A stretch of 64,000 bases of DNA, from NCBI GenBank assembly GCA_031367285.1, contig JANLPN010000392.1, positions 197-64,196 of the forward strand, read 5' to 3'. Position numbers and translations under genes: made by a program. The DNA is from Betaproteobacteria bacterium. GTDB lineage: Bacteria > Pseudomonadota > Gammaproteobacteria > Burkholderiales > Burkholderiaceae_C. Below are positions 34,041 to 53,850 of the stretch, piece after piece. The notes beneath the pieces were generated by a model. That model had not been told where the DNA came from and did no database searches. It worked only from the letters and a program-made list of their open reading frames with translations. Numbering within the stretch: position 1 is the stretch's first letter; every line of letters begins with the position of its first letter.

Positions 34041-34063
34041 CGGCTTGCCGGGTTTCGCAATGG

Positions 34064-38207: not shown

Positions 38208-38272
38208 TCTGACCGAGGGAGCGGCGCAAACTGTATTGCGATCTGTTTCCCGACCTTTATGGAGCCAGCGAA

Positions 38273-39283: not shown

Positions 39284-39318
39284 CCCAAGCGACCCAAGCG
39301 ACCCAAGCGACCCAAGCG
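39283..39318 (+). repeat. Intergenic tandem repeat (ACCCAAGCG)x4
   Basis: Four exact 9-mers starting at the esterase stop codon. Confidence 0.95.
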
Positions 39319-39371
39319 CCATCCGGCCACAGTCCATCCTTGGCGATGGGCCGCCCACCCTGGAGACACCC

Positions 39372-41021
39372 ATGACCCGCACCGAACCCGAAAATTCACG
39401 CCGTGTTGACGCCGTTGTTGTTGGCGCCGGTTTTGCCGGACTTTATATGCTGGTCCGCCTGCGCGAGCTGGGCCTGAAAACACAGGTCTTCGAAGCCGGG
39501 GACGGTGTGGGTGGTACCTGGTACTGGAACCGCTATCCGGGCGCGCGCTGCGACGTGGAGAGCATGCAGTACTCGTATTCGTTCTCGGAAGCGCTGCAGC
39601 AGGAATGGCAATGGACCGAGCGTTATCCCCGGCAGGAAGAAATCCTGCGCTACATCAACCATGTGGCCGATCGCTTCGAACTGCGCCCAGACATCCGGTT
39701 CGAAACCCGCGTCACGGCCGCGGCCTACGACGCGGCCGGCCAGCAGTGGACAGTGCGTACCGATAAAGGCGATACGGTGGTGGCGCGTTTCCTGATTTCC
39801 GCCGGGGGCTGCCTGTCGGCCGGCAGGGTGCCGGACATACCCGGTCTGGACAGCTTCAAGGGCAAGTGGTACCACACCGGCAACTGGCCGCACCACACCG
39901 TGGATTTCAGCGGCCAGCGGGTTGGCGTGATCGGCACCGGGTCATCCGGCATCCAGGCGATTCCTGCCATCGCGCGCCAGGCCAGCCAGGTGGTGGTATT
40001 CCAGCGCACGCCCAATTTCAGCATTCCGGCCTGGAACCGGCCGTTGCCGCGGGACGAGCAACAGGCCTGGAAAGCGAACTATGCCGAACACCGTGAAAAA
40101 GCGCTCGCTACCCGTTCCGGGATCCTGTACGAATACAGCCAGCGGGCGACTTCCGAGGCCACGCCGCAAGAGCGGCAACAGGAGTACGAGCGGCGCTGGC
40201 AACGTGGTGGCGCCAACTTCACCCACGCCTTCAACGATATCTTTGTCAACAAGCAATCCAACGACAGCGCGGCCGAGTTCGTGCGCGACAAGATCCGCGG
40301 CATCGTCAAAGACCCCGAGGTCGCCGCGTTGCTTGCGCCGACCGACCATGCCATCGGTACCAAACGCATCTGCGTCGACACCGACTACTACCAGACCTTC
40401 AACGAAGCGCACGTGCGTCTGGTCGATCTGCGCGCCACGCCCATTACGGACATTGTCGCGGCCGGCATCCGCACGCCTGCCACCACCTACGAACTCGACA
40501 GCATCGTGTTCGCCACCGGCTACGACGCCGTGACGGGGGCACTGGACCGCATCGATATCCGGGGTCCGGGCGGCCGGGCCCTGAAAGAGAAATGGAGTGA
40601 AGGTCCGCGCACCTACCTGGGCATCATGACCGCCGGCTTTCCCAACCTGTTCTTCATCACCGGGCCCGGAAGCCCTTCCGTGCTGACCAACGTGGTGGTG
40701 GCCATCGAGCAGCACGTGGACTGGATCGCGCGTTGCCTGCAACACATGCAAACCCGGCAGCTGGGTGTGGCCGAACCTACGGCGAGCGCCGAAGACGCAT
40801 GGGTGGAGCGTGTCAACCAGGTCGCGGCCGGCACCCTGTTCCCCAGCACCAAGTCCTGGTACATGGGTGCCAACATTCCCGGCAAACCGGCGGTGTTCCT
40901 GCCCTTCGTGGGAGGTTTCGGCAACTACCGGGCCATCTGCGAAGAAGTGGTCATGCAAGCCTATCGGGGATTCCAGTTCACGGACCGCGCACCGCTGGTA
41001 CCGGCCGTTCAACCCCATTGA
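39372..41021 (+). CDS. Type I Baeyer-Villiger monooxygenase
   Basis: GAGFAG, GGTWYWNRYPGARCD, fingerprint FKGKWYHTGNW, GTGSSG, catalytic Arg in TKRIC. GGAGA RBS. Confidence 0.95.
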   Translation: MTRTEPENSRRVDAVVVGAGFAGLYMLVRLRELGLKTQVFEAGDGVGGTWYWNRYPGARCDVESMQYSYSFSEALQQEWQWTERYPRQEEILRYINHVADRFELRPDIRFETRVTAAAYDAAGQQWTVRTDKGDTVVARFLISAGGCLSAGRVPDIPGLDSFKGKWYHTGNWPHHTVDFSGQRVGVIGTGSSGIQAIPAIARQASQVVVFQRTPNFSIPAWNRPLPRDEQQAWKANYAEHREKALATRSGILYEYSQRATSEATPQERQQEYERRWQRGGANFTHAFNDIFVNKQSNDSAAEFVRDKIRGIVKDPEVAALLAPTDHAIGTKRICVDTDYYQTFNEAHVRLVDLRATPITDIVAAGIRTPATTYELDSIVFATGYDAVTGALDRIDIRGPGGRALKEKWSEGPRTYLGIMTAGFPNLFFITGPGSPSVLTNVVVAIEQHVDWIARCLQHMQTRQLGVAEPTASAEDAWVERVNQVAAGTLFPSTKSWYMGANIPGKPAVFLPFVGGFGNYRAICEEVVMQAYRGFQFTDRAPLVPAVQPH

Positions 41022-41031: not shown

Positions 41032-41763
41032 ATGACCCGATTTATCGACCGGGTGTTCCTGATTTCAGGCGGCGCGCGTGGCCTTGGGGAAGCGCAGGCG
41101 CGTGGCCTGGTGGCCGAAGGCGCCAAAGTGGTTATTGCGGATGTGCTGGTGGAGCAGGGCCGGCAATTGGCGGCCGATCTGGGTGGCGCCTGCACCTTCC
41201 AGGAACTGGACGTGACCAGTGAGGCGCAGTGGCGCGAGGCCGTGGCGCTGGCGCGGCGCATCGGCAAGCTGCATGGCCTGGTCAACAACGCCGGCATCTT
41301 CCATCCGGCCTCGATTGCCGATACCAGCACGGAATCATTCGAGCGCCATATGCGCGTCAACCAGCTCGGCACCTTCCTGGGCATGCAGGCGGTGGTCCCG
41401 GCCTTCGAGGACACCGGCAACGGAGCCATCGTCAATATCTCTTCCGCGGCGGGCCTGCGCGGTGCGCCCAACACAATTGCCTACACGGCGACCAAGTGGG
41501 CCGTGCGCGGCATGACCAAGGCCGCGGCTCTGGAGCTTGCGGGCAGGAACATCCGCGTGAACTCGGTCCATCCCGGGCCGATAGACACGGACATGTTGAG
41601 GGTTCGCGGTGCGCAGGAAAACAAGCTGCGCGCCGAACGCGTCCCGATGAAGCGTTATGGAACCAGGGAGGAGATCGCGGGCCTGGTGCTGTTTCTGCTG
41701 TCCGATGCAAGCCGCTACATGACCGGGGCCGAGGTCGCGATGGACGGCGGAATAACGCTGTAG
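41032..41763 (+). CDS. SDR-family alcohol dehydrogenase (3-alpha,20-beta-HSD/CpnA-like), copy 1
   Basis: SGGARGLG, NNAG, YTATK, NSVHPG, DGG. Confidence 0.93.
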   Translation: MTRFIDRVFLISGGARGLGEAQARGLVAEGAKVVIADVLVEQGRQLAADLGGACTFQELDVTSEAQWREAVALARRIGKLHGLVNNAGIFHPASIADTSTESFERHMRVNQLGTFLGMQAVVPAFEDTGNGAIVNISSAAGLRGAPNTIAYTATKWAVRGMTKAAALELAGRNIRVNSVHPGPIDTDMLRVRGAQENKLRAERVPMKRYGTREEIAGLVLFLLSDASRYMTGAEVAMDGGITL

Positions 41764-41824: not shown

Positions 41825-42556
41825 ATGGCACGATTCACTGACCGGGTTTTCCTGATTTCCGGCGGGGCACGGGGACTCGGTGAAGCACAGGCGCGCTCCC
41901 TGGTCGCCGAGGGCGCGAAGGTCGTCATTGGCGACGTGCTGGCCGACGACGGCCAACGGCTCGCGGCTGCGCTCGGGCCGGCGTGCAGGTTCGAGCGGCT
42001 GGACGTCACCAGCGAAGTGTCCTGGCGCAACGCGGTTGCAGTGGCCGAGTCCCTGGGCCGGCTGCACGGCCTGGTCAACAACGCAGGCGTCTACAAACCC
42101 GTGCCTTTGCTGGAAACCGACACGGCCGAGTTCGAGCGCCACACACGGGTCAACCAGCTGGGCACTTTTCTGGGCATGCAGGCGGCGGTTCCGGCGCTCG
42201 AGCGCACCGGCGGCGGCGCCATCGTGAACATGTCGTCCACCGTGGCGCTGCGCAGCGCACCCAACTCCATCGCCTACACCGCCACCAAGTGGGCCGTTCG
42301 TGGCATGACCAAGGCCGCCGCGCTGGAACTGGTGGATAAAAACATCCGAGTCAACTCGGTGCACCCGGGGCCGATAGACACCGACATGCTGAACGTGCGC
42401 ACACGCGAAGAGAACCTGCGCCGGGCGCAGCAGGTGCCGATGAAACGCCTCGGTACCAAAGAGGAGATCGCGGGTCTGGTGTTGTTCCTGCTGTCGGACG
42501 AAAGCCGCTTCATGACCGGCTCGGAGGTGGCGATGGACGGCGGCGCGGCACTTTGA
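41825..42556 (+). CDS. SDR-family alcohol dehydrogenase, tandem paralog copy 2
   Basis: Same 243-aa length and motifs, with long identical blocks shared with copy 1. Confidence 0.93.
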   Translation: MARFTDRVFLISGGARGLGEAQARSLVAEGAKVVIGDVLADDGQRLAAALGPACRFERLDVTSEVSWRNAVAVAESLGRLHGLVNNAGVYKPVPLLETDTAEFERHTRVNQLGTFLGMQAAVPALERTGGGAIVNMSSTVALRSAPNSIAYTATKWAVRGMTKAAALELVDKNIRVNSVHPGPIDTDMLNVRTREENLRRAQQVPMKRLGTKEEIAGLVLFLLSDESRFMTGSEVAMDGGAAL

Positions 42557-42623: not shown

Positions 42624-42639
42624 GCTACTGAGTGGTATA
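42624..42639. promoter_or_regulatory. Near-consensus TACT-N4-(G)GTATA operator upstream of ABC binding protein
   Basis: GCTACTGAGTGGTATA inside an AAAAG...CTTTT inverted frame. AGGGAAAACCCC lies at 42580-42591. Confidence 0.5.
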
Positions 42640-42751
42640 CTTTTCGAAAATAGAGAGTGTGTTTCGGGTTTTCGAAAACATGCTGATTCAGGGTCCGGGA
42701 TATTTTCGTAAACGCCGCACACCACCACCGGTGCGCAAACAAGGAGACAGC

Positions 42752-44020
42752 ATGAAAGTTCAACAAGCAGCAAACACTCCCGCCGCGCAACGGCAAGCCT
42801 TTGGGGCCAAAGGCGGCCTGCTGGCCGCCAACCTCGCGCTCGGTATGTTGGCAGGTTCGCTGGCGCTGGCCGCCGGCGCTCAGGAAGTGCCGGCGGACGG
42901 CGTCTACAAGGACCGCGTTGACTGGGGCGTGCTGATGGACATGAGCGGCCCGACCTCCGCTTCGCAGGGCATCTGGGTCAATGGTTTCCAGGACTACATG
43001 CGCAAGGTCAACGAGGCCGGCGGCATCAACGGGCGCAAGATCAATGTGCTGGCCGAAGACAACCGCTACAACGCGGCGACCGACAAGATCGCCTTCGAGA
43101 AGCTGTCCGGCCAGACACCGGTGATCGCCATCTCGGGCATGGGTACTTCGGCCTCCCAGGTCGGCCTGGCCTCGATCATCAAGGGCGGAAAGATTCCCAT
43201 CGTCGGCACCTATACCCCCACCAAGACCTTGTCGGAGCCCGTCACGCCCATGGTTTACAACGGCTTTTGCGGCTACAAGGAAATGGCGCAGACCGGCATT
43301 GGCTACTACGTCGACCAGCTCAAGCTCAAGAACCCCAAGATCATGACGGTGGCGATAGAGAGCACCGGTGGCAAGGAATACCACGAATACGTCTCCGAAG
43401 TGGCGGCCAAACATGGCGGCACCGCGACCTCGGTCACGACGAAGGTGACCGCCGTCGACGTTACGCCGCAGGTGCTGGAAATCATCGCCGCCAAACCCGA
43501 TCTGGTGACGATCTATGGCGTGGCCAATACCGCCATCCTCACGATGAAGGCGATGCAGCAGTACGGCCTGAAGATCCCCACCTTCGGCATCTCCTACCTT
43601 GGCTCACCGCAGGTGTTCGCGGCCATGGGCCCCCAGGCAGGCGCGAACTACAGCTTCGTGAGCTGCTTCACGCCCGGCGGTTCGGACCAGACCCCTGGCA
43701 ACAAGGACCTTTCGGCATTCGCGGACAAGGTTGGCCACGGCGCCATGAAGGAAGACATCAACTACGTCGCCGGATGGGTGGTGGCGCAGATGGGTGCCGA
43801 GGCGCTTGCCAAGGCCGGGCCCGCGCCGACGCGCGCCAAGCTGGTCGAAGTCATGAACGCGGGTTTTGTGGTTGACAGCAAGGGCCTCGCGGCACCCATC
43901 AACTACACCAAGGACAACCACACTGGACCGGTGGTACTTAAGATGTTCGGTTACGACTACGCGACCAGCAAGTTCAAGCATTACGGTGAATACAACGACT
44001 ACACCAAGTACACCAGGTAA
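42752..44020 (+). CDS. Branched-chain-amino-acid-type (LivK-like) ABC substrate-binding protein
   Basis: AAGGAGA RBS; DMSGPTS...NEAGGINGRKI..LAEDNRY; signal-like N-terminus. Confidence 0.88.
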   Translation: MKVQQAANTPAAQRQAFGAKGGLLAANLALGMLAGSLALAAGAQEVPADGVYKDRVDWGVLMDMSGPTSASQGIWVNGFQDYMRKVNEAGGINGRKINVLAEDNRYNAATDKIAFEKLSGQTPVIAISGMGTSASQVGLASIIKGGKIPIVGTYTPTKTLSEPVTPMVYNGFCGYKEMAQTGIGYYVDQLKLKNPKIMTVAIESTGGKEYHEYVSEVAAKHGGTATSVTTKVTAVDVTPQVLEIIAAKPDLVTIYGVANTAILTMKAMQQYGLKIPTFGISYLGSPQVFAAMGPQAGANYSFVSCFTPGGSDQTPGNKDLSAFADKVGHGAMKEDINYVAGWVVAQMGAEALAKAGPAPTRAKLVEVMNAGFVVDSKGLAAPINYTKDNHTGPVVLKMFGYDYATSKFKHYGEYNDYTKYTR

Positions 44021-44047: not shown

Positions 44048-44302
44048 ATGCTGGCACAAGTTTTCTTCAGCGGCCTGGCCCTGGGCAGCATCTATCGCCT
44101 GGTGGCCCTGGGTTTTGCCAGTTTCCTGATCGTCGAGCACGATATTCCGGTCATCATGGACATTTCCGACAAGATTGTCGTACTGGACTTTGGCCGCAAG
44201 ATCGCCGAGGGCACGCCGCACGAAGTGCAGGCCAACGAAGCGGTGATCGCCGCCTGCCTCGGTACCGAACACGGCGCCGCCGCGGATGCCGTCGATGCCT
44301 GA
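44048..44302 (+). pseudogene. In-frame fusion of LivH-type permease N-terminus and LivG-type ATPase C-terminus
   Basis: MLAQVFFSGLALGSIYRLVALGF joined to IVEHDIPVIMDISDKIVVLDFGRKIAEGTPHEV...ACLG. No Walker motifs or LivM remain. Confidence 0.88.
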
Positions 44303-45989
44303 GACACTGGCCGCGTCGCGCGGCATTCCGGCCTATGAGGCGCTGGCGTACGACATCAAGAGCCGTGGGCACGCTGTTGTATTCGGGCTGATGAGCGACG
44401 ACACGGCGCTGTTCGTCACCACGCTGGACGCCATCGGGGTGCGTTTTTATGGCGCTCGCCACGAGAACACCGCCGTTGCCATGGCCGAGGGTTATGCGGC
44501 TGCCACCGGTGAACTGGGTATCGCCATCATCGGCCGCGGTCCGGCAACCGCAAACGCGCTGCACGGCGCCATGTACGCGCACCGCACCGGCTCCCGGGTG
44601 TTGCTGATCTTCGGCGCCTCTTCGCTGGTGCAAAGTGGTCCGGACGCCAAGGAATTCAATGCCACCGGTGTGTTGCAGGCGGCCGGCATCAAGACCTTTG
44701 TGGCCGCCAATCCGGAGGGAGCGCGGCGCACGCTGGAAAACGCGCTCGACGCCACCCGGCAAGGCGGCTGTGCCACCTTGTTATTGCCCGTGAACGTGCA
44801 ACTCGGGCTGGTCGAGTACCCGGGCCCGATGGGTATACCGCAGCCCGCGGCGGCAGTGCCGGCAGCCCGCACGCCGGCGCGCCGCGCGGCCATGGACGCC
44901 GCGGCCCGCCTGCTCGACCTCAGCCGCAAACCGCTGTTTGTCGTCGGTCTGGGCGCGCACCGCTCGGGCGCCCGCGCAGCCATAGAACGGCTGGCGGACA
45001 AGGTCGGTGCGGTGCTCGCAACCACGCTCAAGGGCAAGGACATGTTTCATGGCCACCCCTATGACCTGGGGGTGCTTGGTTCGTTCTCGCACGCGGCGGG
45101 GCGTCGCCTGATTGACCAGGCCGACTGTATCGTCGCATTCGGCGCCGGCCTGAACCAGCGCACCACCAGTTACGGAACCTCGTTGCCGCTGGATGTGCCC
45201 TTGATCCACGTGGACATCACGCGTGCCAATATCGGGCGCCTGTTCCATGCGGATATCGAGCTGGTGGCCGATGCACGGACGGCGGCGGAGCAACTGGCGC
45301 TTGCGGTTGCCGAACGCGCCGCGGCGGACAAGCTTTTCTACACGGCCGAGAACCGCCAGCTGCTTGCCGGGCACGACCTGGCCGGCGAATTCCAGAGCGC
45401 GGACACACCGCGCACCATGGACCCGCGCACCTGTGCCATGGAACTCGACCGCCTGTTGCCGCCCGATCGCAATGCGGTCTATGACGCTGGCAACTTCCTG
45501 CAGGTCATTCCTTATGTTTCCGGCATCGGCCCGGACCATATCAAGAACACGGTGGATTTCGCATCCATAGGCATGGGCTTTGGAGCCGCGCTCGGTTTCG
45601 CGTGCGGCGCACCGGACCGGACCACCGTGCTGTTTGTCGGTGACGGGGGCTTCCTGATGACCCTGGGTGAGCTGGAGACGGCGGTGCGCGAGGACATACC
45701 GCTCGTGATTGTTGTGATGAATGACTGCGCCTACGGAGCCGAACTGCACTTTCTCCAGATGCGCGACATGCCGGTAGCCAAGGCGGTTTTTGTCGATATC
45801 GACTTTGCGCCGGTCGCCGAAGCCTTTGGTTTTGAGGCCTATACGGTGCGCACCCTGGACGAGCTGCGCAAACTGGCGCCGGTGTTGAAGAACCCGCAAG
45901 GCCCGATCCTGCTGGATTGCAAGATCAACGCCTCGGTGGCCGCCGGCTACCACACCGAAACACTCGAACACGAGCGGCGCAAGGCTTGA
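44286..45989 (+). CDS. Thiamine-diphosphate-dependent enzyme (acetolactate synthase-like superfamily)
   Basis: ARHENTAVAMAEGY (catalytic Glu), ThDP motif GDGG...MND. Alternative start 44295. Confidence 0.9.
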   Translation: MPSMPETLAASRGIPAYEALAYDIKSRGHAVVFGLMSDDTALFVTTLDAIGVRFYGARHENTAVAMAEGYAAATGELGIAIIGRGPATANALHGAMYAHRTGSRVLLIFGASSLVQSGPDAKEFNATGVLQAAGIKTFVAANPEGARRTLENALDATRQGGCATLLLPVNVQLGLVEYPGPMGIPQPAAAVPAARTPARRAAMDAAARLLDLSRKPLFVVGLGAHRSGARAAIERLADKVGAVLATTLKGKDMFHGHPYDLGVLGSFSHAAGRRLIDQADCIVAFGAGLNQRTTSYGTSLPLDVPLIHVDITRANIGRLFHADIELVADARTAAEQLALAVAERAAADKLFYTAENRQLLAGHDLAGEFQSADTPRTMDPRTCAMELDRLLPPDRNAVYDAGNFLQVIPYVSGIGPDHIKNTVDFASIGMGFGAALGFACGAPDRTTVLFVGDGGFLMTLGELETAVREDIPLVIVVMNDCAYGAELHFLQMRDMPVAKAVFVDIDFAPVAEAFGFEAYTVRTLDELRKLAPVLKNPQGPILLDCKINASVAAGYHTETLEHERRKA

Positions 45990-45998
45990 ACTGAAACC

Positions 45999-47657
45999 AT
46001 GCCAACACCACCAAGCTTCGACGTGATCGTGATCGGAGCGGGTTTTGCCGGATTACACATGTTGCATCGGCTGCGCGGCATGGGGTATGCAGCCCGCGTC
46101 TACGAAGCGGGCGCCGACGTGGGCGGGGTCTGGTACTGGAACCGGTATCCGGGTGCCCGCTGCGACGTGGAAAGCCTGCAGTATTCGTATTCGTTTTCAC
46201 CCGAGCTGGAGCAGGAATGGGCGTGGAGCGAGAAATACTCCGCGCAGCCCGAAATCCTGCGCTACATCCAGCATGTGGCCGACCGCTTCGATCTGCGCCG
46301 CGATATCCAGTTCAATACCCGCGTGCGCTCGGCCAGGTTCGACGAAGCAGCCGGGCGCTGGTTGCTCCAGACTGAAACCGGCGCGCCGGTGTCCTGCCGG
46401 TTCGTTGTCATGGCCACCGGCGCGCTGTCGATCCCGCGTCTGCCGGACGTGCCCGGGATCGCGGATTTCGCGGGCAAGGTCTACCACACTGGCGCCTGGC
46501 CGCACGAGGGGGTGGACTTCAGCGGGCTGCGGGTCGGTGTTATCGGCACCGGGTCTTCGGGCATCCAGGCCATACCGGCGATTGCCAAACAGGCACGGCA
46601 GCTGGTGGTGTTCCAGCGTACCGCGAATTTCTCCATCCCGGCCTGGAACGGGCCGCTGCAGGCCGACGCGCAGCAGGCCTGGAAGGCGGCCTACCGCGAA
46701 CACCGCCAGCGGGCGCGCGAGCTCGGTACGCTGTACGAGTTCAGCGACCAGGCCGCCTCGCAGGTTGACGAGCCCACGCGCACACGCGAGTACGAGCGGC
46801 GCTGGAACAAGGGCGGCGTCAATTTCGTGCATGCGTTCAACGACCTGATGCTGGACAAACGCTCCAACGACACCATTGCCGACTTTGTGCGGGCGCGGAT
46901 TCGGGACATCGTGAAAGACCCGGAGGTGGCGGCGTCGCTGTGCCCCATGGACCATCCCCTGGGCAGCAAACGCATCTGCGTGGATACCGGTTATTACGAG
47001 ACCTACAACCGCGCCAACGTCACCCTGGTCGATCTGAAAAAGACCCCGATCCGGAAGGTCACGGCCACCGGCATAGGGACCGGCGCAAGTAATGGCGAGG
47101 GTGACGGCGCGAGTAACGGCGAGACGGTTCACGAACTCGACGCCCTGGTTTGCGCCACCGGCTACGACGCCTTGACCGGCGCCGTGCTCAACATCGACGT
47201 GCGCGGGCGCAACGGAGTGGCACTGACGGACAACTGGGCGGCCGGGCCACGCACCCTGCTGGGTCTGATGACCAGCGGTTTCCCGAACCTGTTCATCATC
47301 ACGGGCGCGGGCAGCCCGTCGGTGCTGGTCAATATGGTGGTCGGCATCGAACACCATGTCGAATGGATCTGCGATTGCCTGGCCTACCTGCGCAGCCACG
47401 GCCTGGCCACCATCGAGGCCACGCGGGCGGCCGAAGACCGCTGGGTCGAACACGTCAATGCCGCCGCCAACCGGACACTGTTCCCGCTGGCGAATTCCTG
47501 GTTCCTGGGCGCCAATATTCCGGGCAAGCCGAGGGTCTTCATGCCTTATGTGGCCCGCATCGGCGTTTACCGCAAGGAGTGCCAGGAGATTGCCGACAGC
47601 GGGTACGCCGGCTTCGTGCTGGCGCCCGCCAGCGCTGTGTCGAAGGGTGCCCCATGA
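45999..47657 (+). CDS. Type I Baeyer-Villiger monooxygenase, second paralog
   Basis: GAGFAG, WYWNRYPGARCD, FAGKVYHTGAW, GTGSSG, SKRIC. Confidence 0.95.
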   Translation: MPTPPSFDVIVIGAGFAGLHMLHRLRGMGYAARVYEAGADVGGVWYWNRYPGARCDVESLQYSYSFSPELEQEWAWSEKYSAQPEILRYIQHVADRFDLRRDIQFNTRVRSARFDEAAGRWLLQTETGAPVSCRFVVMATGALSIPRLPDVPGIADFAGKVYHTGAWPHEGVDFSGLRVGVIGTGSSGIQAIPAIAKQARQLVVFQRTANFSIPAWNGPLQADAQQAWKAAYREHRQRARELGTLYEFSDQAASQVDEPTRTREYERRWNKGGVNFVHAFNDLMLDKRSNDTIADFVRARIRDIVKDPEVAASLCPMDHPLGSKRICVDTGYYETYNRANVTLVDLKKTPIRKVTATGIGTGASNGEGDGASNGETVHELDALVCATGYDALTGAVLNIDVRGRNGVALTDNWAAGPRTLLGLMTSGFPNLFIITGAGSPSVLVNMVVGIEHHVEWICDCLAYLRSHGLATIEATRAAEDRWVEHVNAAANRTLFPLANSWFLGANIPGKPRVFMPYVARIGVYRKECQEIADSGYAGFVLAPASAVSKGAP

Positions 47658-48493
47658 CCGCGGCGCCAGGAGATTCCACGACCCAGGGCGGCCAGCGCTT
47701 CACGGGGCGGATTGCCGTCATAACCGGGGGTGCCAGCGGCATCGGCAAGTCGTGTGCGGAGGTCCTTGCGGCGCAGGGTGCCCTGGTGGTTATCGCCGAC
47801 CTGGACCTCGTGGGAGCGACCCGCGTGGCCGATGGGCTTGCCGGCCGTGCGTACGCCATCGACCTGGGCCATGCACCGGATATCGACGTATTCGCCCGGC
47901 GCGTGGAACGCGAGGTCGGTCCGGTGGACATGCTGGTCAACGCGGCCGGCATCATCCAGGGCGCGGCATTGCCTCCGCAGGAGCTGGCGCTCGAAACCTA
48001 TGACCGCGTGTTCGCCGTCAACCTGCGCGGCACCTATGCCGCTTGCGCCGCCTTCGGCCGGCATATGGCCGCGCGCCATCGTGGCGCCATCCTCAATATT
48101 GCATCCATCGCCGGCATGCGCTCGACACCCCTGCATGCCTACGGCCCCATGAAAGCAGCGGTGATCCAGCTGACGGAAAACCTGGCCACCGAATGGGGGC
48201 GCAGCGGCGTGCGCGTGAACTGCCTGTCACCGGGCCCGGTGCTCACCCCCGCGCTGCAGGACGCCATAAGCAAAGGCCAGCGCGACCGAGAGCGCATGGA
48301 AAACAGCATGGCCAGCGGTCAGCTCGTGATGCCGCGGGAAGTGGCCATGGCCGCTGCGTTTTTGTTATCGGACGAAGCGTCCGCCATCACCGGCGTCAAC
48401 CTTCCGGTGGACCACGGCTGGCTGGTCGCCAGCCCCTGGGCTTCATTCGGCGGCGTGCGGCCGCGTTTACCAACCAGCAAGGAACTTTCATGA
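47654..48493 (+). CDS. SDR-family oxidoreductase
   Basis: TGGASGIG, NAAG, YGPMK, NCLSPG, VDHG. Confidence 0.9.
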   Translation: MTAAPGDSTTQGGQRFTGRIAVITGGASGIGKSCAEVLAAQGALVVIADLDLVGATRVADGLAGRAYAIDLGHAPDIDVFARRVEREVGPVDMLVNAAGIIQGAALPPQELALETYDRVFAVNLRGTYAACAAFGRHMAARHRGAILNIASIAGMRSTPLHAYGPMKAAVIQLTENLATEWGRSGVRVNCLSPGPVLTPALQDAISKGQRDRERMENSMASGQLVMPREVAMAAAFLLSDEASAITGVNLPVDHGWLVASPWASFGGVRPRLPTSKELS

Positions 48494-49566
48494 AACTCGG
48501 TTTTTTCACCATGCCCATGCACCCCATCGGCAAGGACTGGCAGACCTCGCTGCGCGAGGACCGTGCCGCGTTTGTGTTGGCCGACCAGCTTGGTTTTGTC
48601 GAGGGGTATGTGGGGGAACACGGCACCGACCCGGAGGAGAACATCACTTCGTCGGCGATGTTCCTGGCCACGCTGGTAGACGCCACCAAGACCATGAAGC
48701 TGGGCACCGGCACCCTCAACATGCCCAACCACCACCCGGCCGCGGTGGCCGCCAACATCGCCATGCTCGACCACCTGCTGGGCGGGCGCTTCATCCTGGG
48801 CATCAGCCCCGGCGCCCTGCCGTCGGACGCCGAGATCTACGGCAACTTCGACCTGCAGCGGCCGGCGATGTTCCTGGAGGCCATCAACCAGCTGTTGCAG
48901 ATCTGGACCACGGCGCCGCCCTACAACCTGAAAGGCCAGTTCTGGAATATTTCCACGCAGCGCACCTACATCCCGGAAACCGGCATGGGCACGGTGCCCT
49001 TGCCGCTGCAGCGCCCGCACCCGCCCATCGTGGTGACGGCCGTGGCGCCGTTTTCCCAGGGCATCACCGAAGCGGCGGTACGCGGCTGGGAGCCGATCTC
49101 GGCCAACTTCCTGCTGCCGCAGTGGGTCAAGAGCCATTGGGGCAAATACGTGGAAGGCTGCGTACGCGCCGGCCGGCCCGCCGACACCGCCAACTGGCGC
49201 GTTGCGAAAACCGTGTTTGTGGCCAAAGATGATGCCACGGCGGCCGCCTACGCATTGGGCACCGACGGCCCGTATTACTACTATTACCGTTCGTTGTTCA
49301 ACAAGCTAAAACGGCGCGACGCGCTGGGGGTGTTCAAGACCGACCCCAAGATGCCGGACGACCAGGTGACGCTGGAGCAGGTGGTGGAAAAACTGGTGAT
49401 CCACGGTTCACCGGAGCGCGTGGCTGACAAGCTGCACGCGCTGAAGGAAGAAACCGGTGAGTTCGGCACCTTGCTGTATGCGGGCGTGGACTGGAAAGAC
49501 CCGAAGCTGGCGCGCGACTCCATGGTGCTGATGGCGGAGAAGGTGTTGCCGCGCATGCATGCCTGA
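48490..49566 (+). CDS. LLM-class flavin-dependent monooxygenase (diketocamphane monooxygenase-like branch)
   Basis: MKLGFF...GEH...ENI...HHPAAVA..IAMLDHL.GRFILGISPG...SD; HGSPE. Resembles recalled 2,5-DKCMO pattern. Confidence 0.85.
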   Translation: MKLGFFTMPMHPIGKDWQTSLREDRAAFVLADQLGFVEGYVGEHGTDPEENITSSAMFLATLVDATKTMKLGTGTLNMPNHHPAAVAANIAMLDHLLGGRFILGISPGALPSDAEIYGNFDLQRPAMFLEAINQLLQIWTTAPPYNLKGQFWNISTQRTYIPETGMGTVPLPLQRPHPPIVVTAVAPFSQGITEAAVRGWEPISANFLLPQWVKSHWGKYVEGCVRAGRPADTANWRVAKTVFVAKDDATAAAYALGTDGPYYYYYRSLFNKLKRRDALGVFKTDPKMPDDQVTLEQVVEKLVIHGSPERVADKLHALKEETGEFGTLLYAGVDWKDPKLARDSMVLMAEKVLPRMHA

Positions 49567-49613
49567 CCATCTGACCATCTGGCCGACCCCGGCCGACCCC
49601 GGCCGAACCGGGG
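49563..49613. repeat. Short tandem repeats and GC hairpin after the LLM gene
   Basis: (CTGACCAT)x2, (GGCCGACCCC)x2, and CCCCGG-N5-CCGGGG hairpin 49597-49613. Confidence 0.7.
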
Positions 49614-49647
49614 TGTGCGCCGGCCACGGTATTGAAAGAAACGAGCC

Positions 49648-51240
49648 ATGACACCCAAGCCAACCAGCACTACCATACCGGCCCTGCTCGACGAGCAGGC
49701 GAAAAAATTCGGCGGGCGCGAGGCCGTTGTCGGGGGCGGCGAGCGCCTGACCTACAGCGCGCTGCGGCTGGCCGTGCGGCGTGCCGCCAAAGGGCTGATG
49801 GCCCTGGGTGTTGCGCCGGGCGACCATGTGGCCATACTGATGGGCAACCGGCCCGAGTGGATCGTTAGCTTCCTGGCCTTGCAGCAGCTGGGTGCAACGG
49901 CGGTGGGCCTGAATACCTGGGCCACACCGCGTGAAATGGAGTTTTCGCTGGCGCATGCGGAGATCAAGTTCATGGTTGCCGTGGACCGCTTCCGCAAGAA
50001 CGACTACCGCGCCATGCTGGAGGGCATGCAGCCGCATGCCGCTACGTTCCCGCAATTGCGTCGCGTGGTATGGCTCGACGCCGATGCCCAGGCACCTTCG
50101 GTCGGCCCGGACCGGTTGTCCTGGGAAAAACTGCTTGCGATGGGTGAGGGCATCAGCGAAGAACGCATCGACGCCGCGGGCCTGGCGTCCACGGGCGACA
50201 GCGTCGCGATGCTGCTCTACACCTCCGGCTCGACGGCGGCCCCCAAGGGCATCTTGCTGCAGCACCGCAGCTGGATAGAAAACAGCTGGAACATCGGCGA
50301 GCGCCAGAAGGTGACCGAACACGACCGGTTATGGCTGGCGGTATCGCTGTTCTGGAGTTTCGGCAGTGTCAACGCCATGCCCAATATGCTGGGCCACGGC
50401 GCGTGCGTCGTGTTGCAGGAACATTTTGACGCCGGCGAGGCGCTCGCCCTGATCGAACAGGAGCGCTGCTCGATCATGTACGGCACGCCCAATATGGTGC
50501 AGGCCTTGCTGGAGCACCCGGACCGGGCGCGCCGCGATCTTTCGTCACTGCGCAGTGGCGCCATGATTGGCACGCCCGAACAGCTGATGGGCGCCGTGCA
50601 CCTTGGCGCGCGCGAAATCTGCAATGTCTATGGCTTGAGCGAAACCTACGGCAATTGCGCGGTCATCGACGCCCACGAGCCGCTGGAGGTGCGGCTGCAG
50701 TCGGTCGGCGAGCCGCTGCCGGGGGTGACGGTGCAAATTCGCCACATCGAGAGCGGCGCGCTGCTGGACGCCGACCAGGTCGGCGAGATCCGGGTGCAGG
50801 GCCCGCTGTTCGCCGCCTACTACAAGGACCAGGCCAAGACCCGTGAGGCGTTCGACGAACATGGCTTTTTCCATACCGGCGACCTGGGCATGCTTGACGC
50901 CGCCGGCCGGCTCTACTACCGGGGCCGCCTCAAGGAGATGGTCAAGAGCGGCGGAATCAATATCGCGCCGATCGAGGTGGAGGAAACCCTGATGCGGCAC
51001 CCGGCGGTGCGCACCGCCTACGTGATCGGTGTGCCCGATCCGGTGCTGGACGAGGCGCTGGTGGCCATCATCATCCCGAACGAGGGCGCGCACCCCGACC
51101 TGGAAGAACTGAAGCAGTTCTGCAAACGCGAATTGGCGGCCTACAAGGTGCCTACGCGCTTTCGCCTGGCCACCGACGACGAATTGCCGCTCACGACCAC
51201 CGGCAAGGTGCAGAAGATGAAGCTGCATACCCTGCTGTGA
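49648..51240 (+). CDS. AMP-forming acyl-CoA synthetase
   Basis: YTSGSTAAPKG, YGLSET, FHTGDLG, GRLKEMVKSGG, TGKVQK. Confidence 0.94.
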   Translation: MTPKPTSTTIPALLDEQAKKFGGREAVVGGGERLTYSALRLAVRRAAKGLMALGVAPGDHVAILMGNRPEWIVSFLALQQLGATAVGLNTWATPREMEFSLAHAEIKFMVAVDRFRKNDYRAMLEGMQPHAATFPQLRRVVWLDADAQAPSVGPDRLSWEKLLAMGEGISEERIDAAGLASTGDSVAMLLYTSGSTAAPKGILLQHRSWIENSWNIGERQKVTEHDRLWLAVSLFWSFGSVNAMPNMLGHGACVVLQEHFDAGEALALIEQERCSIMYGTPNMVQALLEHPDRARRDLSSLRSGAMIGTPEQLMGAVHLGAREICNVYGLSETYGNCAVIDAHEPLEVRLQSVGEPLPGVTVQIRHIESGALLDADQVGEIRVQGPLFAAYYKDQAKTREAFDEHGFFHTGDLGMLDAAGRLYYRGRLKEMVKSGGINIAPIEVEETLMRHPAVRTAYVIGVPDPVLDEALVAIIIPNEGAHPDLEELKQFCKRELAAYKVPTRFRLATDDELPLTTTGKVQKMKLHTLL

Positions 51241-51294
51241 GGACGCGGAGCATATCAAGCGACTCGGCGCGGCGGCGCCAATTACAATTTTTGC

Positions 51295-52068
51295 ATGCGT
51301 CCTGACCGTTACCTGCGCACCTTCGATGTCCTCAACCTTCTGGTACAGCATAAGGACGGGCTGCGGCTGACGGAAATCAAGGAAGCGCTGGACCTGCCCG
51401 TGAGCAGCGTGCACAACATGCTGCAGACCATGGTGAGCGCCGAGGTGGCCACGGTGAGCGAAGACCTGCGTTATTCGGTCGGGCCGCGCGCCGTGGCCCT
51501 GGCATTGCGCACCCTGCAGTCGCTTGACATCCGCACCATTGCGCGGCGTTATCTGCAGGAACTGGTCAAGGAAATCGGCGACGATGTCTACCTGGCCATG
51601 CTGGTGGGTAAACGCGTGATGTATGCGGACCGCAGCCTCGGGACCCAGCGCATCTCGCTCGACATCCGGCTGGGGGAGTCGTTGTTCCTGCACAGCACGG
51701 CCACCGGCAAGTTGTTTGCGGCCTACAACACCAAGCTCGGGGCACAGGCGCTGGCAGGCCGCCTGCCCAAAGTCACGCCAACCACCATCACCGACCCGCA
51801 GGAACTGGAGCGCGAGTTCAAGCGTATCCGCTCGCTCGGTTATGCCAAGAGTTCGGAGGAGTCGGTCGAAGGCATCGTGGGTTACGCGGTTCCTATCCAG
51901 GACGCCTCCGGTGGCATCGCCGCGGCGATCCACGCCTCGGTGCTGAGCAAACGGGCGACCCGGTTGCATGAGCGCAAACTGCTCGGCGCGATGCGCGAAT
52001 GTGCGCTGCAGGTGGAGCGGCAACTGGGCAACTTTGACGCGGCCAATGCCGCGCGCGCCGACAGGTAG
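51295..52068 (+). CDS. IclR-family transcriptional regulator
   Basis: HTH GLRLTEIKEALDLPVSSVHNMLQTM; LHSTATGK; ESVEGIVGYAVPI. Confidence 0.92.
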   Translation: MRPDRYLRTFDVLNLLVQHKDGLRLTEIKEALDLPVSSVHNMLQTMVSAEVATVSEDLRYSVGPRAVALALRTLQSLDIRTIARRYLQELVKEIGDDVYLAMLVGKRVMYADRSLGTQRISLDIRLGESLFLHSTATGKLFAAYNTKLGAQALAGRLPKVTPTTITDPQELEREFKRIRSLGYAKSSEESVEGIVGYAVPIQDASGGIAAAIHASVLSKRATRLHERKLLGAMRECALQVERQLGNFDAANAARADR

Positions 52069-52090: not shown

Positions 52091-52504
52091 CTACCTCAGC
52101 AGAACGTTGGTACCGGGCTGGATGTCCGCCTCGTTGATATAGCCTATCGCACCGGGTGTGGCGTTCACGAAGTTGATCACGTCGCTGCTCCTGGAAAGTT
52201 CGCGCGGCGACGCGCCTTTGCCGATGTAGCGGCGCACCGTCCAGTACGCCGTGTATTTGTCTTCGTCCTGGTTCAGATAGACCTGAAGGAAGCGGTTGCG
52301 AACCGTGCTGCCGCTATTGGCGTTGACCGCGGTGACCGAAACGCCGTTGATTTCGATTACCTTGCCGGTATAGATTTTCGCGATGGTCTGGGCATCCAGC
52401 TGGTGCAGACCTGGGTGGCCGATCACCACCACGCCGTCCGCGGCGCGCGCAGCCCCAGCCGCCGATGCCAGCGCCAGGAACAGTGTGCGGATAACGGCCT
52501 TCAT
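52091..52504 (-). CDS. Small exported single-lobe periplasmic-binding-protein-like (PstS-like half) protein
   Basis: Signal peptide to ARA; VNATPGAIGYI motif; 137 aa. Alternative start 52522. Confidence 0.72.
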   Translation of the reverse strand: MKAVIRTLFLALASAAGAARAADGVVVIGHPGLHQLDAQTIAKIYTGKVIEINGVSVTAVNANSGSTVRNRFLQVYLNQDEDKYTAYWTVRRYIGKGASPRELSRSSDVINFVNATPGAIGYINEADIQPGTNVLLR

Positions 52505-52518
52505 GATGGATCGGCTGG

Positions 52519-53850
52519 TCAAAACACGAAGTTATAAGACAGCGACAACACGTTGATGTGCTGGTTGCGGATATTGCTTCCAGGCGCCGCGTCGACCAGG
52601 CTCGAAACCTGGCCGATACGCGTGCGCATCCATTCGCCCTTGAGCTTGCTGCTAGCCGAAAACGAGTACGAGGTTCCTAGGGCCCAGGAACTCTGGTCAT
52701 ACGTGAGCATGCCATCCGCGCCGACACGTTGTGACGCGTTGATCAACGCGGCTCCCGGGATGAAACCGGGCACTGTGTTGTTGTTGACGCTGTTGTACAG
52801 ATTGATTTGCGCGGACTCCGAGCGCAGGAATGCGTAAGACACGTAGGGCGTCCATTTGCCGACATTTTTCAGCAGCGACACGTAGCCGCGGCTGGAGGCA
52901 TTTGCAAAGTCTACATTCGACTGGTTCAGGTAGGTACGGGCAAACTCGCCAATTACACGAAACCCCGAATCGAGACTCACATCCGCACCCAAGGTGATGA
53001 TGGTGTTGTGAAAGGCGGAGGTCGTGCCGACTCCAGGGCCGGGCAGGGAGGGGTCAACCTGGTAGTAACCAATACCTGGTAACAGCGAAACGAAGGGATA
53101 ACTGCTGGGAATCGGCGCGCCGTCCTGCACTCGCCCAACCCCGCGAACGACGGCCATGCGGTAGGTATCCTCGCTTCGTTTGTACGACAGGGCAACAATT
53201 CCACCTTTGAATTCGAAGGCTCTAAACGCCGCTCCGGGTCCTTGACCGCCGGGAATGCCGTCGCGCAGCCAGAAGCGCCCATCGAACTTCGATTTGCCCA
53301 GGTAGCCGTCCAGGCTAAGGTCGCCGCTGGCCAGGCTCCAATTCTTGCTTGCCAATATTCCATTGAAATTGTTACTGGGCGAGATCGAGTACATCTCGGT
53401 TGGCAAGCGGGCAAAATCGTAGGTGACCCCGACGTCGTAACTCTGCGAATAGAGGTAGAACGGAGTGCGTTGCTTGCCGACGCGAAAGAACCAGTCGTCG
53501 CTGGGGCGGTAAGACAAAAAAGCCCAGGAAACAACGCCCCTGTAGTGGCTGTCATTGTCCGAAGCGGGGGCTTCGGTGACCTGGACCGTGGCCCCGAACT
53601 TGTCCGCGAACCTGGCATCCACCTGCAGGCCGGCGACCGAATCACGCCGGAATGTGCCGCCGTTGTTGATAAAGCGCTGGTAGTTGAATGCCTGGTCGGA
53701 ACGCGCGTAGCCCAGTGTGCCAAACCCTGAAACCGAAAGATCGAGCGCCGCCGCGGGAAGCGTCGCCAGGACCAACGCGCCCGCCAGGCACGGTCCTGCC
53801 CAATGGCGCGCAAGGCCTGTCCCCGATCCATTGGTTATCCCATTTTGCAT
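52519..53850 (-). CDS. Outer-membrane beta-barrel/porin-like protein
   Basis: Signal peptide, SGFGTLG start, alternating amphipathic strands, C-terminal LSYNFVF. Confidence 0.8.
   Translation of the reverse strand: MQNGITNGSGTGLARHWAGPCLAGALVLATLPAAALDLSVSGFGTLGYARSDQAFNYQRFINNGGTFRRDSVAGLQVDARFADKFGATVQVTEAPASDNDSHYRGVVSWAFLSYRPSDDWFFRVGKQRTPFYLYSQSYDVGVTYDFARLPTEMYSISPSNNFNGILASKNWSLASGDLSLDGYLGKSKFDGRFWLRDGIPGGQGPGAAFRAFEFKGGIVALSYKRSEDTYRMAVVRGVGRVQDGAPIPSSYPFVSLLPGIGYYQVDPSLPGPGVGTTSAFHNTIITLGADVSLDSGFRVIGEFARTYLNQSNVDFANASSRGYVSLLKNVGKWTPYVSYAFLRSESAQINLYNSVNNNTVPGFIPGAALINASQRVGADGMLTYDQSSWALGTSYSFSASSKLKGEWMRTRIGQVSSLVDAAPGSNIRNQHINVLSLSYNFVF

Follow-up and report, generated by a model that had tools for sequence, protein, structure and literature searches.

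What does a compact set of six catabolic genes at positions 44286-52068 of the stretch of DNA analysed here (64,000 nucleotides, hereafter the window) degrade, and by which route? The initial annotation had read from this locus a ThDP enzyme, a type I Baeyer-Villiger monooxygenase (BVMO), a short-chain dehydrogenase (SDR), an LLM oxygenase, an acyl-CoA synthetase (ACS) and an IclR regulator, and had likened them to the camphor pathway. The ORF list and Pfam domains agreed with all six gene classes and placed the genes co-directionally on the plus strand, and the tight coupling described in the annotation could be read directly as two ATGA overlaps, one between BVMO2 and SDRc (47654-47657) and one between SDRc and LLM (48490-48493), with gaps of 9 bp (ThDP to BVMO2), 81 bp (LLM to ACS) and 54 bp (ACS to IclR) at the remaining junctions. 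A six-frame scan of the whole window for the P450 haem motif F..G.[RHK].C.G gave no match, as the annotation had also reported. None of the six proteins reached a curated NCBIfam equivalog cut-off.

Table 1. Features of the cluster and its surroundings in the window.
Feature	Position	Strand	Basis
Flavin reductase fused to IclR ligand-binding domain	6099-7190	+	Match to L012 reductase
Enoyl-CoA hydratase (ECH)	28143-29219	+	Pfam ECH_1
Segment of ~9 kb, insertion	29223-38282		blastn against relatives
Esterase or lactonase, hormone-sensitive-lipase (HSL) type	38273-39283	+	Pfam Abhydrolase_3, E 1.7e-69
BVMO1, type I BVMO	ORF 39177-41021	+	PAMO/STMO matches, fingerprint
SDRa, SDR (start approximate)	41050-41763	+	Pfam adh_short_C2
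SDRb, tandem paralogue of SDRa	41825-42556	+	Pfam adh_short_C2
LIV-type periplasmic solute-binding protein	42632-44020	+	Pfam Peripla_BP_6, E 1.1e-47
Chimeric remnant ORF, 84 codons	44048-44302	+	Match to permease start and ATPase end in L002-L010
ThDP enzyme	44286-45989	+	Pfam TPP_enzyme_N/M/C
BVMO2, type I BVMO, 552 aa	45999-47657	+	Pfam flavin monooxygenase, PAMO match, fingerprint
SDRc, accessory SDR	47654-48493	+	Pfam, synteny, ATGA overlaps
LLM, FMN-dependent oxygenase component	48490-49566	+	Pfam Bac_luciferase
ACS, AMP-forming	49648-51240	+	Pfam AMP-binding and AMP-binding_C
IclR-family regulator	51295-52068	+	Pfam HTH_IclR and IclR_C

Although the six genes stood, their extent had been drawn too narrowly, as the same strand carries, immediately upstream, the genes for the esterase, BVMO1, SDRa, SDRb and the LIV-type solute-binding protein, which are syntenic with them in relatives. 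The six genes are the distal half of a larger conserved, patchily distributed catabolic cluster. Synteny over the whole cluster was found in relatives L002-L010, L012 and L014, and at least 10 Rhodoferax/Burkholderiales MAGs show the ancestral order, namely ECH, esterase, BVMO1, SDR, SDR and LIV-type ABC importer, followed by ThDP, BVMO2, (SDR), LLM, ACS and IclR. Carriers were lake/freshwater and sediment Rhodoferax-type bacteria, and the cluster was rare, occurring in 3 of the 400 family genomes sampled. The esterase, syntenic in nine relatives, scored 332 bits against the NCBIfam LipP1 HSL model, below the cut-off of 350. The true start of BVMO1 is probably near 39390, because similarity begins only at residue ~70.

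The cluster has been disturbed in the window at two places. In L003, L004, L006, L007 and L010 the esterase is immediately preceded by a gene 85-93% identical to the ECH, which is therefore taken as the first gene of the neighbourhood in its ancestral form. In blastn comparisons, L003 596-1362 matched window 28455-29222 and L003 1431-2302 matched window 38283-39154; the alignments of L004 and L010 likewise stopped at 29222 and restarted at 38283. The ~9-kb segment separating ECH from the esterase, missing from these relatives, is thus an insertion in the window. Inside the segment, at 37565-37591, there is a strong hairpin resembling a terminator. Further downstream, the remnant ORF corresponded over residues 1-24 to the beginning of the first permease, and over residues 25-84 to the end of the last ATPase, of L002-L010 (83-96% identity), with BCA_ABC_TP_C its only Pfam domain. 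It was left behind by an in-frame deletion of ~3.3 kb in which two permease genes and the greater part of two ATPase genes were lost; L010 keeps the permease and ATPase genes intact. The LIV-type solute-binding protein, 60-72% identical to its counterparts in relatives, is now an orphan in the window. As the importer has been deleted and the insertion splits the cluster, the pathway of this uncharacterised system may be decaying in the source genome. Elsewhere, the window holds CoA-metabolism genes, and its island carries many other catabolic modules.

Conservation differed between the genes. LLM followed by ACS was the most conserved pair (window, Rhodoferax MAGs, L140 and G242), and ThDP-LLM pairing recurred in four independent arrangements, including L140, a minimal ABC-ThDP-LLM-ACS contig (ThDP 59% and LLM 79% identity) without BVMOs. 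G242 held an LLM-ACS-IclR trio by itself (69%, 40% and 78% identity, respectively). L003, L004 and L012 carry SDRc; in L006 and L007 a second IclR gene takes its place, and L009 and L010 lack it. The conserved core is predicted to be ThDP-LLM-ACS, with BVMO2 and SDRc as lineage-specific additions. The L140 and G242 arrangements and the variable SDRc, together with the insertion and deletion inside the cluster and the many other modules of the island, would also suit a reading in which there is no single pathway and a catabolic island prone to accretion has gathered two or three independent modules next to one another (esterase-BVMO1-SDRs; importer; ThDP-LLM-ACS-IclR). We consider this quite improbable, as the complete co-linear order was maintained at 68-83% protein identity with short intergenic gaps across at least 10 MAGs, and one regulator gene stands at the cluster end.

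The comparison with camphor degradation bears on the LLM in particular. Its nearest solved structure was 3,6-diketocamphane 1,6-monooxygenase (3,6-DKCMO; 4uwm, E 5.5e-28, residues 26-356 of 358), with the second-best far behind at 1e-10, and on a Rhodococcus opacus plasmid a gene that carries the annotation 'limonene 1,2-monooxygenase' was 31% identical. The match to 3,6-DKCMO is a distant one, of roughly 100 bits. We assign the LLM as the oxygenase component of a monooxygenase that has two components and depends on FMN, and that is probably a type II Baeyer-Villiger enzyme; because homologues (40-60% identity) also accompany aldehyde dehydrogenases and alcohol oxidases in unrelated settings, the Baeyer-Villiger part of this assignment depends on that distant relationship. 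Alpha/beta-hydrolases adjoin homologues on a Paracoccus plasmid and in a second G242 copy, and on the Paracoccus plasmid the LLM (47%) has as its partner another ThDP enzyme, which shares only 26% identity with that of the window. Flavin reductases lie within ~3 kb of plasmid LLM homologues (42-58% identity) in four records and ~7 kb away in a fifth (Ancylobacter). In L012 a flavin reductase gene directly follows an 85%-identical LLM orthologue; a GST gene comes next. The whole-genome best match to the L012 reductase (E 4.3e-40, 44% identity) was the fusion protein at 6099-7190, also 40% identical to the reductase adjoining a Marinovum LLM homologue, and we propose it as a candidate trans-acting flavin reductase for the LLM.

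If the route were camphor-like and its substrate a bicyclic monoterpenoid or a dioxygenated alicyclic compound, an SDR would yield a diketone, the DKCMO-like LLM would lactonise it, the acid formed on opening would be CoA-activated, BVMO2, like OTEMO, would take the CoA ester as its substrate, and a cyclic 1,2-diketone would be hydrolysed by the ThDP enzyme. The LLM's relatives favour such a route, as does the LLM-ACS pair, which matches the camphor order, where the CoA ligase comes after DKCMO; SDRa and SDRb both matched trans-4-hydroxycyclohexanecarboxylate dehydrogenase best in NCBIfam (237 bits against a cut-off of 400, and 238 bits, also below it), and in a freshwater/sediment host terpenoid-derived matter is plausible by ecological inference. 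However, LIV-type and TctC-type binding proteins suggest uptake of an acid, not of a neutral terpene, and the P450 motif scan gave no hydroxylase able to start on an unfunctionalised ring. The sub-cut-off SDR matches were the sole hint of the bicyclic or alicyclic substrate that the initial annotation had named; no test pointed to one.

The BVMOs departed from the camphor pattern. BVMO1 matched PAMO (1w4x, E 2.8e-199) and STMO (E 3e-190) far better than OTEMO (E 1.6e-140), and BVMO2 did the same (E 5.3e-191, 1e-188 and 2.7e-133, respectively), so that the OTEMO-like BVMO expected from camphor logic was not borne out. The two are 60% identical, BVMO2 having an extra 12-residue Gly/Ser/Asn-rich insertion, and both carry the FxGxxxHxxxWP fingerprint (FKGKWYHTGNWP at 39855 in BVMO1; FAGKVYHTGAWP at 46467 in BVMO2). 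By these matches, both are assigned to the PAMO/STMO-type NADPH/FAD enzymes. With PAMO the best solved relative of both, an aryl-alkyl ketone route (e.g. lignin-derived) comes into view, in which two stereocomplementary SDRs would oxidise a 1-arylalkanol, a PAMO-type BVMO would form an aryl or benzyl ester for the esterase to split, and the ThDP enzyme, working in the manner of benzoylformate decarboxylase or benzaldehyde lyase, would have an aryl 2-oxo acid or acyloin as its substrate. Linear-ketone routes such as the hap and mek clusters typically show the arrangement esterase-BVMO-SDR-SDR, and the GST gene of L012 would also fit, but STMO, a steroid enzyme, scored equally well, and neither a ring-cleavage dioxygenase nor an aromatic-ring hydroxylase was among the window ORFs scanned.

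The ThDP enzyme (motif GDG-X25-ND at 45639) bears on all of these routes. Its best PDB match was BbmA (8e-36), with ALS, PoxB, HACL and cyclohexane-1,2-dione hydrolase (CDH) all weaker. CDH was the weakest of the 60 matches listed (E 6e-21, partial) and no nearer than other ALS-like enzymes, which argues against a ring-cleaving 1,2-diketone hydrolase, one of the activities that the initial annotation had listed for the superfamily. No NCBIfam model reached its cut-off for this protein, 5-guanidino-2-oxopentanoate decarboxylase being among the equal-best sub-threshold matches. Homologues (51-60% identity) adjoin FMN_dh genes in Variovorax OK212, L070 and, as an own-genome paralogue, C313, and others in soil contigs adjoin RidA and an unrelated LLM; because relatives adjoin FMN-dependent 2-hydroxy-acid dehydrogenases or RidA, 2-oxo-acid decarboxylation is pointed to. 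The enzyme probably represents an uncharacterised ALS-like family of 2-oxo-acid decarboxylases or C-C lyases, and because the family was seen in at least five gene contexts, its reaction may differ between them. With contexts that point to 2-oxo acids, a distant CDH and BVMOs unlike OTEMO, the camphor-like route is rather improbable, its analogy surviving in the LLM and the LLM-ACS pair. The aryl-alkyl route is unlikely as well: FMN_dh beside ThDP mirrors mandelate dehydrogenase with benzoylformate decarboxylase, yet among the 60 best solved ThDP matches no benzoylformate decarboxylase entry occurred and benzaldehyde lyase stood only mid-list (E 1.7e-28 to 2.7e-28).

Other contexts of the ThDP family suggested alpha-oxidation by a 2-hydroxyacyl-CoA lyase-like enzyme. 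The ACS, whose best NCBIfam matches were fatty-acid CoA ligase and FadD3 families (all sub-cut-off), would activate a 2-methyl-branched acid, the LLM would hydroxylate C2, the ThDP enzyme would release formyl-CoA and a methyl ketone, and a PAMO/STMO-type BVMO and the esterase would dismantle the ketone. Such a route would use all conserved genes and explain methyl-ketone-type BVMOs; the family often occurs with CoA transferases, ACADs and SCPx-thiolase/DUF35, a 2OG oxygenase (hydroxylase) precedes homologues in soil contigs, and an actinobacterial 2-hydroxyisobutyryl-CoA lyase is a precedent (PMC7176365, PMC8760513). We nevertheless regard it as highly improbable, as HACL/OXC structures (3e-27) ranked below BbmA and ALS, and having FMN_dh and RidA as neighbours speaks for free 2-oxo acids. 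Moreover, the catalytic Gln conserved in HACL and ALS (Q113/Q128; PMC8760513) aligns with Glu123 in the window enzyme, at a position that varies across the family by context type.

We favour, at slightly better than even confidence, the degradation of one carboxylic acid with secondary-alcohol or keto groups by three oxygen-inserting enzymes, the ThDP enzyme and the CoA ligase; alicyclic, aryl-alkyl and branched acids are the candidates left by the evidence. The LIV-type ABC system, deleted in the source genome, would import the substrate, and the SDRs would turn ring or chain hydroxyls into ketones. The BVMOs and the FMNH2-dependent LLM would add oxygen beside carbonyls, and the resulting esters or lactones would be opened to hydroxy or keto acids by the HSL-type esterase or spontaneously. 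The ThDP enzyme could then take one carbon off a 2-oxo-acid intermediate or cleave an alpha-dicarbonyl or acyloin C-C bond. The ACS would make the CoA thioester of the resulting acid for beta-oxidation, which would fall to the enoyl-CoA hydratase together with the acyl-CoA dehydrogenases and thiolases filling the remainder of the window, and IclR would detect an intermediate.

Among known systems, the Pseudomonas putida CAM plasmid (2,5- and 3,6-diketocamphane monooxygenases, CamF, OTEMO) shares with the cluster a two-component LLM oxygenase, LLM then CoA ligase with a type I BVMO and dehydrogenases, and a flavin reductase encoded elsewhere. In contrast, the LLM is only distantly related to 3,6-DKCMO (101 bits, ~27-30% identity as judged by eye in the alignment), the window BVMOs group with PAMO and STMO, there is no P450, and the cluster has in addition a ThDP enzyme, an ABC importer and an esterase, with IclR as regulator. 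PAMO (Thermobifida fusca) and STMO (Rhodococcus rhodochrous), whose own physiological pathways are poorly defined, matched the window BVMOs over their full length (E-188 to E-199), but in the window two paralogues share a single cluster with an LLM and a ThDP enzyme. The ThDP homologues beside FMN-dependent 2-hydroxy-acid dehydrogenases at three loci follow the logic of MdlB/MdlC, the known mandelate dehydrogenase and benzoylformate decarboxylase pair, although the window cluster has no FMN_dh gene, and the guanidino-oxopentanoate match recalls AruI-type decarboxylases. Finally, esterase-BVMO1-SDR-SDR resembles the hap (4-hydroxyacetophenone) and mekAB (methyl ethyl ketone) cassettes, linear-ketone BVMO and esterase systems, in taking alcohol to ketone to ester to alcohol and acid; unlike those, the window cassette is joined to an importer and a ThDP-BVMO2-LLM-ACS module in one conserved array.

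The six genes running from the ThDP enzyme to the IclR regulator (44286-52068) were co-directional and, by ORF calls and Pfam, had the domain content claimed in the initial annotation. The tight coupling claimed for them was likewise seen in the sequence as two ATGA overlaps, and the gap between the ThDP enzyme and BVMO2 genes was 9 bp. The reported absence of a P450 held across the whole 64-kb window, where a six-frame motif scan returned two type I BVMO fingerprints, one ThDP motif and no match to the haem motif. None of the six proteins reached a curated NCBIfam cut-off. The acyl-CoA synthetase (ACS) displayed the ANL superfamily architecture of an AMP-binding domain and a C-terminal domain, below every equivalog cut-off, and the regulator had the N-terminal HTH and C-terminal effector domain of the IclR architecture. 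PDB searches with the solute-binding protein, SDRc and ACS gave nothing informative, and the ESM Atlas offered generic names only.

Genes of the cluster, with window positions and supporting domain evidence or remarks
Gene	Position	Strand	Evidence or remark
Enoyl-CoA hydratase	28143-29219		abuts esterase in relatives
HSL-type esterase	38273-39283	+	directly upstream part of cluster
BVMO1	in ORF 39177-41021	+	second BVMO, upstream part
Two tandem SDRs (SDRa, SDRb)	between BVMO1 and binding protein	+	upstream part
LIV-type solute-binding protein	42632-44020	+	upstream part
ALS-like ThDP enzyme	44286-45989	+	Pfam domains
Flavin monooxygenase (BVMO2)	45999-47657	+	Pfam domains
SDR (SDRc)	47654-48493	+	Pfam domains
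Luciferase-like monooxygenase (LLM)	48490-49566	+	PF00296, E 1.6e-38
AMP-forming acyl-CoA synthetase (ACS)	49648-51240	+	PF00501, E 5e-75; PF13193, E 3e-19
IclR regulator	51295-52068	+	PF09339 (HTH) and PF01614 (effector domain)

In relatives, the 5' part of the cluster read esterase, BVMO1, SDR, (SDR), binding protein, two permeases and two ATPases, and the 3' part read ThDP enzyme, BVMO2, (SDRc, a second IclR regulator or nothing), LLM, ACS and IclR. Because housekeeping genes lay 3' of IclR in these relatives, the cluster was taken to end there; in the window, the two minus-strand ORFs (143 and 443 aa) that follow IclR at 52091-53850 had no Pfam match at E 0.001. Among species-representative genomes, those with the ThDP enzyme at 68-83% identity were nearly all MAGs of lake Rhodoferax and Burkholderiales, and orthologues were present in 3 of 400 sampled family genomes, one of the three other genomes of the genus and none of 400 sampled class genomes. 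The cluster is rare, its carriers being a small number of Burkholderiales from freshwater and sediment. Near-identical DNA was recovered from freshwater-sediment metagenomes of two studies, and the sequencing runs listed as carrying it included no RNA run. Promoter-like sites were not enriched, and terminator-like sites were in slight excess (18, against a shuffle mean of 13.2, sd 3.8).

In its own genome the cluster seems partly eroded, with the importer deleted and an insertion splitting the array. All four importer genes (two permeases, two ATPases) were intact in at least nine relatives. The window held an 84-codon ORF at 44048-44302, a chimera to which the first permease gene contributes codons 1-24 and the last ATPase gene its final 60, which points to a clean in-frame deletion of ~3.3 kb that would have stripped the importer of its membrane and ATPase components. 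The solute-binding protein was left without transporter partners in the window. The junction near 44120 was bridged by no listed Logan contig, although four sediment metagenomes cover the region. The spacing between the enoyl-CoA hydratase and esterase genes was ~9 kb (29223-38282) as opposed to ~68 bp in three related loci (L003, L004 and L010), relative to which the segment appears to be a ~9-kb insertion. Within this segment, a strong terminator-like hairpin (11-bp stem and T-run, 37565-37591) preceded a di-haem cytochrome c gene with two CxxCH motifs (37584-38207).

Both flavin monooxygenases carried the fingerprint FxGxxxHxxxW[P/D] between two Rossmann motifs, reading FKGKWYHTGNWP at 39855 in BVMO1 and FAGKVYHTGAWP at 46467 in BVMO2; the Rossmann motifs GAGFAG and GTGSSG were seen in the pairwise alignment of the two proteins, which were 60% identical. 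Full-length matches over ~530 residues were obtained with PAMO (E 3e-199 for BVMO1, 5e-191 for BVMO2) and STMO (3e-190 and 1e-188), and cyclohexanone monooxygenases scored clearly lower for both. By the fingerprint and the full-length similarity to biochemically proven BVMOs, the two are predicted to be type I Baeyer-Villiger monooxygenases. Their placement, like that of the LLM, was made by ranked HMMER scores against PDB sequences in place of a formal phylogeny. OTEMO (3uov; E 1.6e-140 for BVMO1, 2.7e-133 for BVMO2) ranked below PAMO, STMO, TmCHMO and 6jdk, so the OTEMO-like BVMO expected from camphor logic was not borne out; both enzymes are best assigned to the PAMO/STMO clade and not to OTEMO orthologues. 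BVMO2 also contained a 12-residue Gly/Ser/Asn/Glu-rich insertion (GASNGEGDGASN-like) at residues ~363-374 (window 46999-47657) that was missing from BVMO1.

The ThDP enzyme had PYR, middle and PP domains (three Pfam), an invariant H59-E60 and GDGG...MND at 45639. With this canonical set of domains, Glu60 as the catalytic residue and the GDG-X(24-27)-N(N/D) motif, it belongs to the ThDP-dependent ALS-like (DC) superfamily. Against the PDB, it was approximately equidistant from BbmA, acetolactate synthases, PoxB, benzaldehyde lyase, HACL/OXC and glyoxylate carboligase, with HACL structures (3e-27) below BbmA and ALS. The initial annotation had pointed out that the superfamily includes ring-cleaving 1,2-diketone hydrolases; cyclohexane-1,2-dione hydrolase (CDH, 4d5g; E 6.2e-21, residues 198-528 only) was the weakest among the 60 matches listed, which speaks against a specific relationship to it. 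HACL and ALS share a conserved Gln at one active-site position (Q113 in RuHACL, Q128 in AcHACL), and the active site of OXC has Tyr-Glu (PMC8760513). In HMMER alignments, Glu123 of the ThDP enzyme, preceded by an invariant Lys122, aligned with the Gln of catabolic ALS, and position 123 read E, E, E, R, G and S across the family. Because the Gln position is Glu123 here and is variable across the family, there is no support for the enzyme as an ALS or HACL proper. Membership of the 2-hydroxyacyl-CoA lyases or oxalyl-CoA decarboxylases is likewise unsupported, as neither the active-site Gln nor Tyr-Glu was seen. An organosulfonate reading, pairing an Xsc-like ThDP enzyme with an SsuD-like LLM, was rejected, as Xsc models did not outscore ALS models and fell far short of their cut-off.

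The ThDP family was widespread, with more than 443 relatives in a metagenome scan, and its gene contexts varied. An FMN-dependent 2-hydroxy-acid dehydrogenase, a CoA transferase and TctC accompanied it in Variovorax OK212, at locus L070 and beside a paralogue on another contig (C313) of the window's genome. Metagenome contigs held the arrangements RidA-ThDP-LLM, with an LLM from another family, and 2OG-oxygenase-ThDP-PNPOx-PrpD, and further contexts included Amidohydro_2 or SCPx-thiolase/DUF35. Because the FMN-dependent dehydrogenase and RidA both deliver 2-oxo acids, these neighbors are the strongest argument at hand for a family that may decarboxylate 2-oxo acids. The C313 paralogue (C313:17996-19654; L063 9970-11754, minus) was ~52% identical to the window enzyme; it is oriented divergently to genes for SnoaL_4 and the FMN-dependent 2-hydroxy-acid dehydrogenase, and its neighbors include a split ACAD pair and SCPx-thiolase/DUF35. 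The family was also linked to a CoA-transferase/ACAD/SCPx-thiolase module on a metagenome contig (L104), which ran CoA-transferase (69%), ACAD (80%), TctC, FMO (76%), SCPx-thiolase (42%) and then a ThDP homologue (58%); the equivalent module in the window (8074-14681) ended with DUF35 and a TetR gene instead of the ThDP homologue.

The LLM consisted of a luciferase-like TIM-barrel domain, and its sole strong solved relative was 3,6-diketocamphane 1,6-monooxygenase (4uwm; E 5.5e-28, an end-to-end alignment over residues 26-356), followed by luciferase alpha at E 1e-10. Judged by these scores, the nearest characterised relative is DKCMO, in a distant relationship without support for orthology. 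Identity was 31% to a gene on a Rhodococcus opacus plasmid that carries the annotation limonene 1,2-monooxygenase. The LLM family was large and strongly conserved in Burkholderiales, where over 100 clusters reached at least 77% identity; Ramlibacter sp. 2FC and Piscinibacter sakaiensis have LLMs that are 84-85% identical. Of 301 genomes sampled from the order, 34 had homologues of 44-69% identity, a tally that includes one unpublished genome (G205) on which no individual claim depends. At a related locus (L012), a Flavin_Reduct gene overlapped the end of an 85%-identical LLM orthologue, and flavin reductases lay near LLM homologues on plasmids of five genera (Marinovum, Paracoccus, Agrobacterium, Phaeobacter and Ancylobacter). 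The LLM is thus predicted to be a two-component flavin enzyme with a separate reductase. The best match in its own genome to the L012 reductase (44%) was a flavin-reductase/IclR-sensor fusion at 6099-7190, which is likely the partner reductase and is put forward as a candidate. Alpha/beta-hydrolases adjoined LLM homologues and a CoA ligase was invariably adjacent, which would fit a putative ester- or lactone-forming oxygenase whose product is converted to an acid. Right behind the intact LLM stop codon, the 8-bp unit CTGACCAT was tandemly duplicated (49563-49578) and followed by a 10-bp GGCCGACCCC repeat; in each of the four sediment metagenome runs, the contigs had CTGACCAT in a single copy.

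The most original aspect of the cluster is the recurrent coupling of a ThDP enzyme with an LLM. A minimal arrangement on one contig (L140) placed ABC ATPases before ThDP (59%), LLM (79%) and ACS genes with no BVMO or SDR in between, another genome (G242) carried PrpD-IclR(78%)-TctC-ACS(40%)-LLM(69%), and on a Paracoccus plasmid a 47% LLM was paired with another type of ThDP enzyme, together with a flavin reductase, an SDR and hydrolases. From these arrangements, the conserved core is ThDP-LLM-ACS or LLM-ACS-IclR, to which BVMO2 and SDRc were added. Non-orthologous ThDP-LLM pairing was repeated in the window cluster, L140, soil contigs with RidA-ThDP-LLM and the Paracoccus plasmid, where the ThDP family differed. 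The operon on the last (L146; Paracoccus methylovorus plasmid p2, 219185-229446) ran from an alpha/beta-hydrolase, the LLM, an unrelated ALS-like ThDP enzyme and flavin reductase to an SDR, a racemase-family protein, an aldehyde dehydrogenase, a hydrolase, an amidohydrolase and an aldolase, and is an independent pairing. It is conceivable, if rather unlikely, that ThDP enzyme, LLM and CoA ligase form an undescribed modular carbon-trimming unit, in which a 2-oxo acid would be decarboxylated, the carbonyl oxygenated by the FMNH2-dependent LLM (by turning an aldehyde into an acid or by a Baeyer-Villiger reaction, in place of an aldehyde dehydrogenase) and the product trapped as a CoA ester. If so, the repeated pairing would mirror a general functional coupling.

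Alongside the observed gene content, synteny, family placements and reductase association, we infer a sequence of mechanistic steps. An acid with hydroxyl or keto groups would be imported, and the SDRs would oxidize hydroxyls to ketones; the best NCBIfam score of SDRa and SDRb, below cut-off, was to trans-4-hydroxycyclohexanecarboxylate dehydrogenase. BVMO1, BVMO2 and the LLM could then insert oxygen, the esterase could hydrolyze the esters or lactones, and the ThDP enzyme might shorten a 2-oxo-acid intermediate or cleave an alpha-dicarbonyl or acyloin. ACS would activate the product for beta-oxidation by enzymes of the surrounding island (CoA transferases, ACADs, thiolase/DUF35 and the enoyl-CoA hydratase). 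The scheme is compatible with alicyclic or terpenoid acids, with aryl-alkyl ketones and with branched acids alike; a bicyclic substrate, one of the two kinds proposed initially, was singled out by no evidence.

The cluster may signal that, within natural organic matter, one particular class of keto or hydroxy acid is being used. For PAMO/STMO-type enzymes, the natural roles of which are obscure, it supplies a physiological setting. It also opens a way into a ThDP family that is uncharacterised and counts hundreds of metagenomic members. Catabolism by Baeyer-Villiger chemistry is well known. Literature searches on the gene combination, BbmA, and Rhodoferax with Baeyer-Villiger found nothing relevant, and we know of no described pathway in which two PAMO/STMO-type BVMOs occur together with a DKCMO-like two-component LLM and an ALS-like ThDP enzyme. 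As a form of Baeyer-Villiger catabolism, the cluster is a variant that is as yet uncharacterised. The analogy to the camphor pathway drawn in the initial annotation survived in part: a DKCMO-related LLM is followed by a CoA ligase in both, whereas the ThDP enzyme did not fit and the type I BVMOs of the window fall with PAMO and STMO, OTEMO being the CoA-ester-specific BVMO of camphor degradation.
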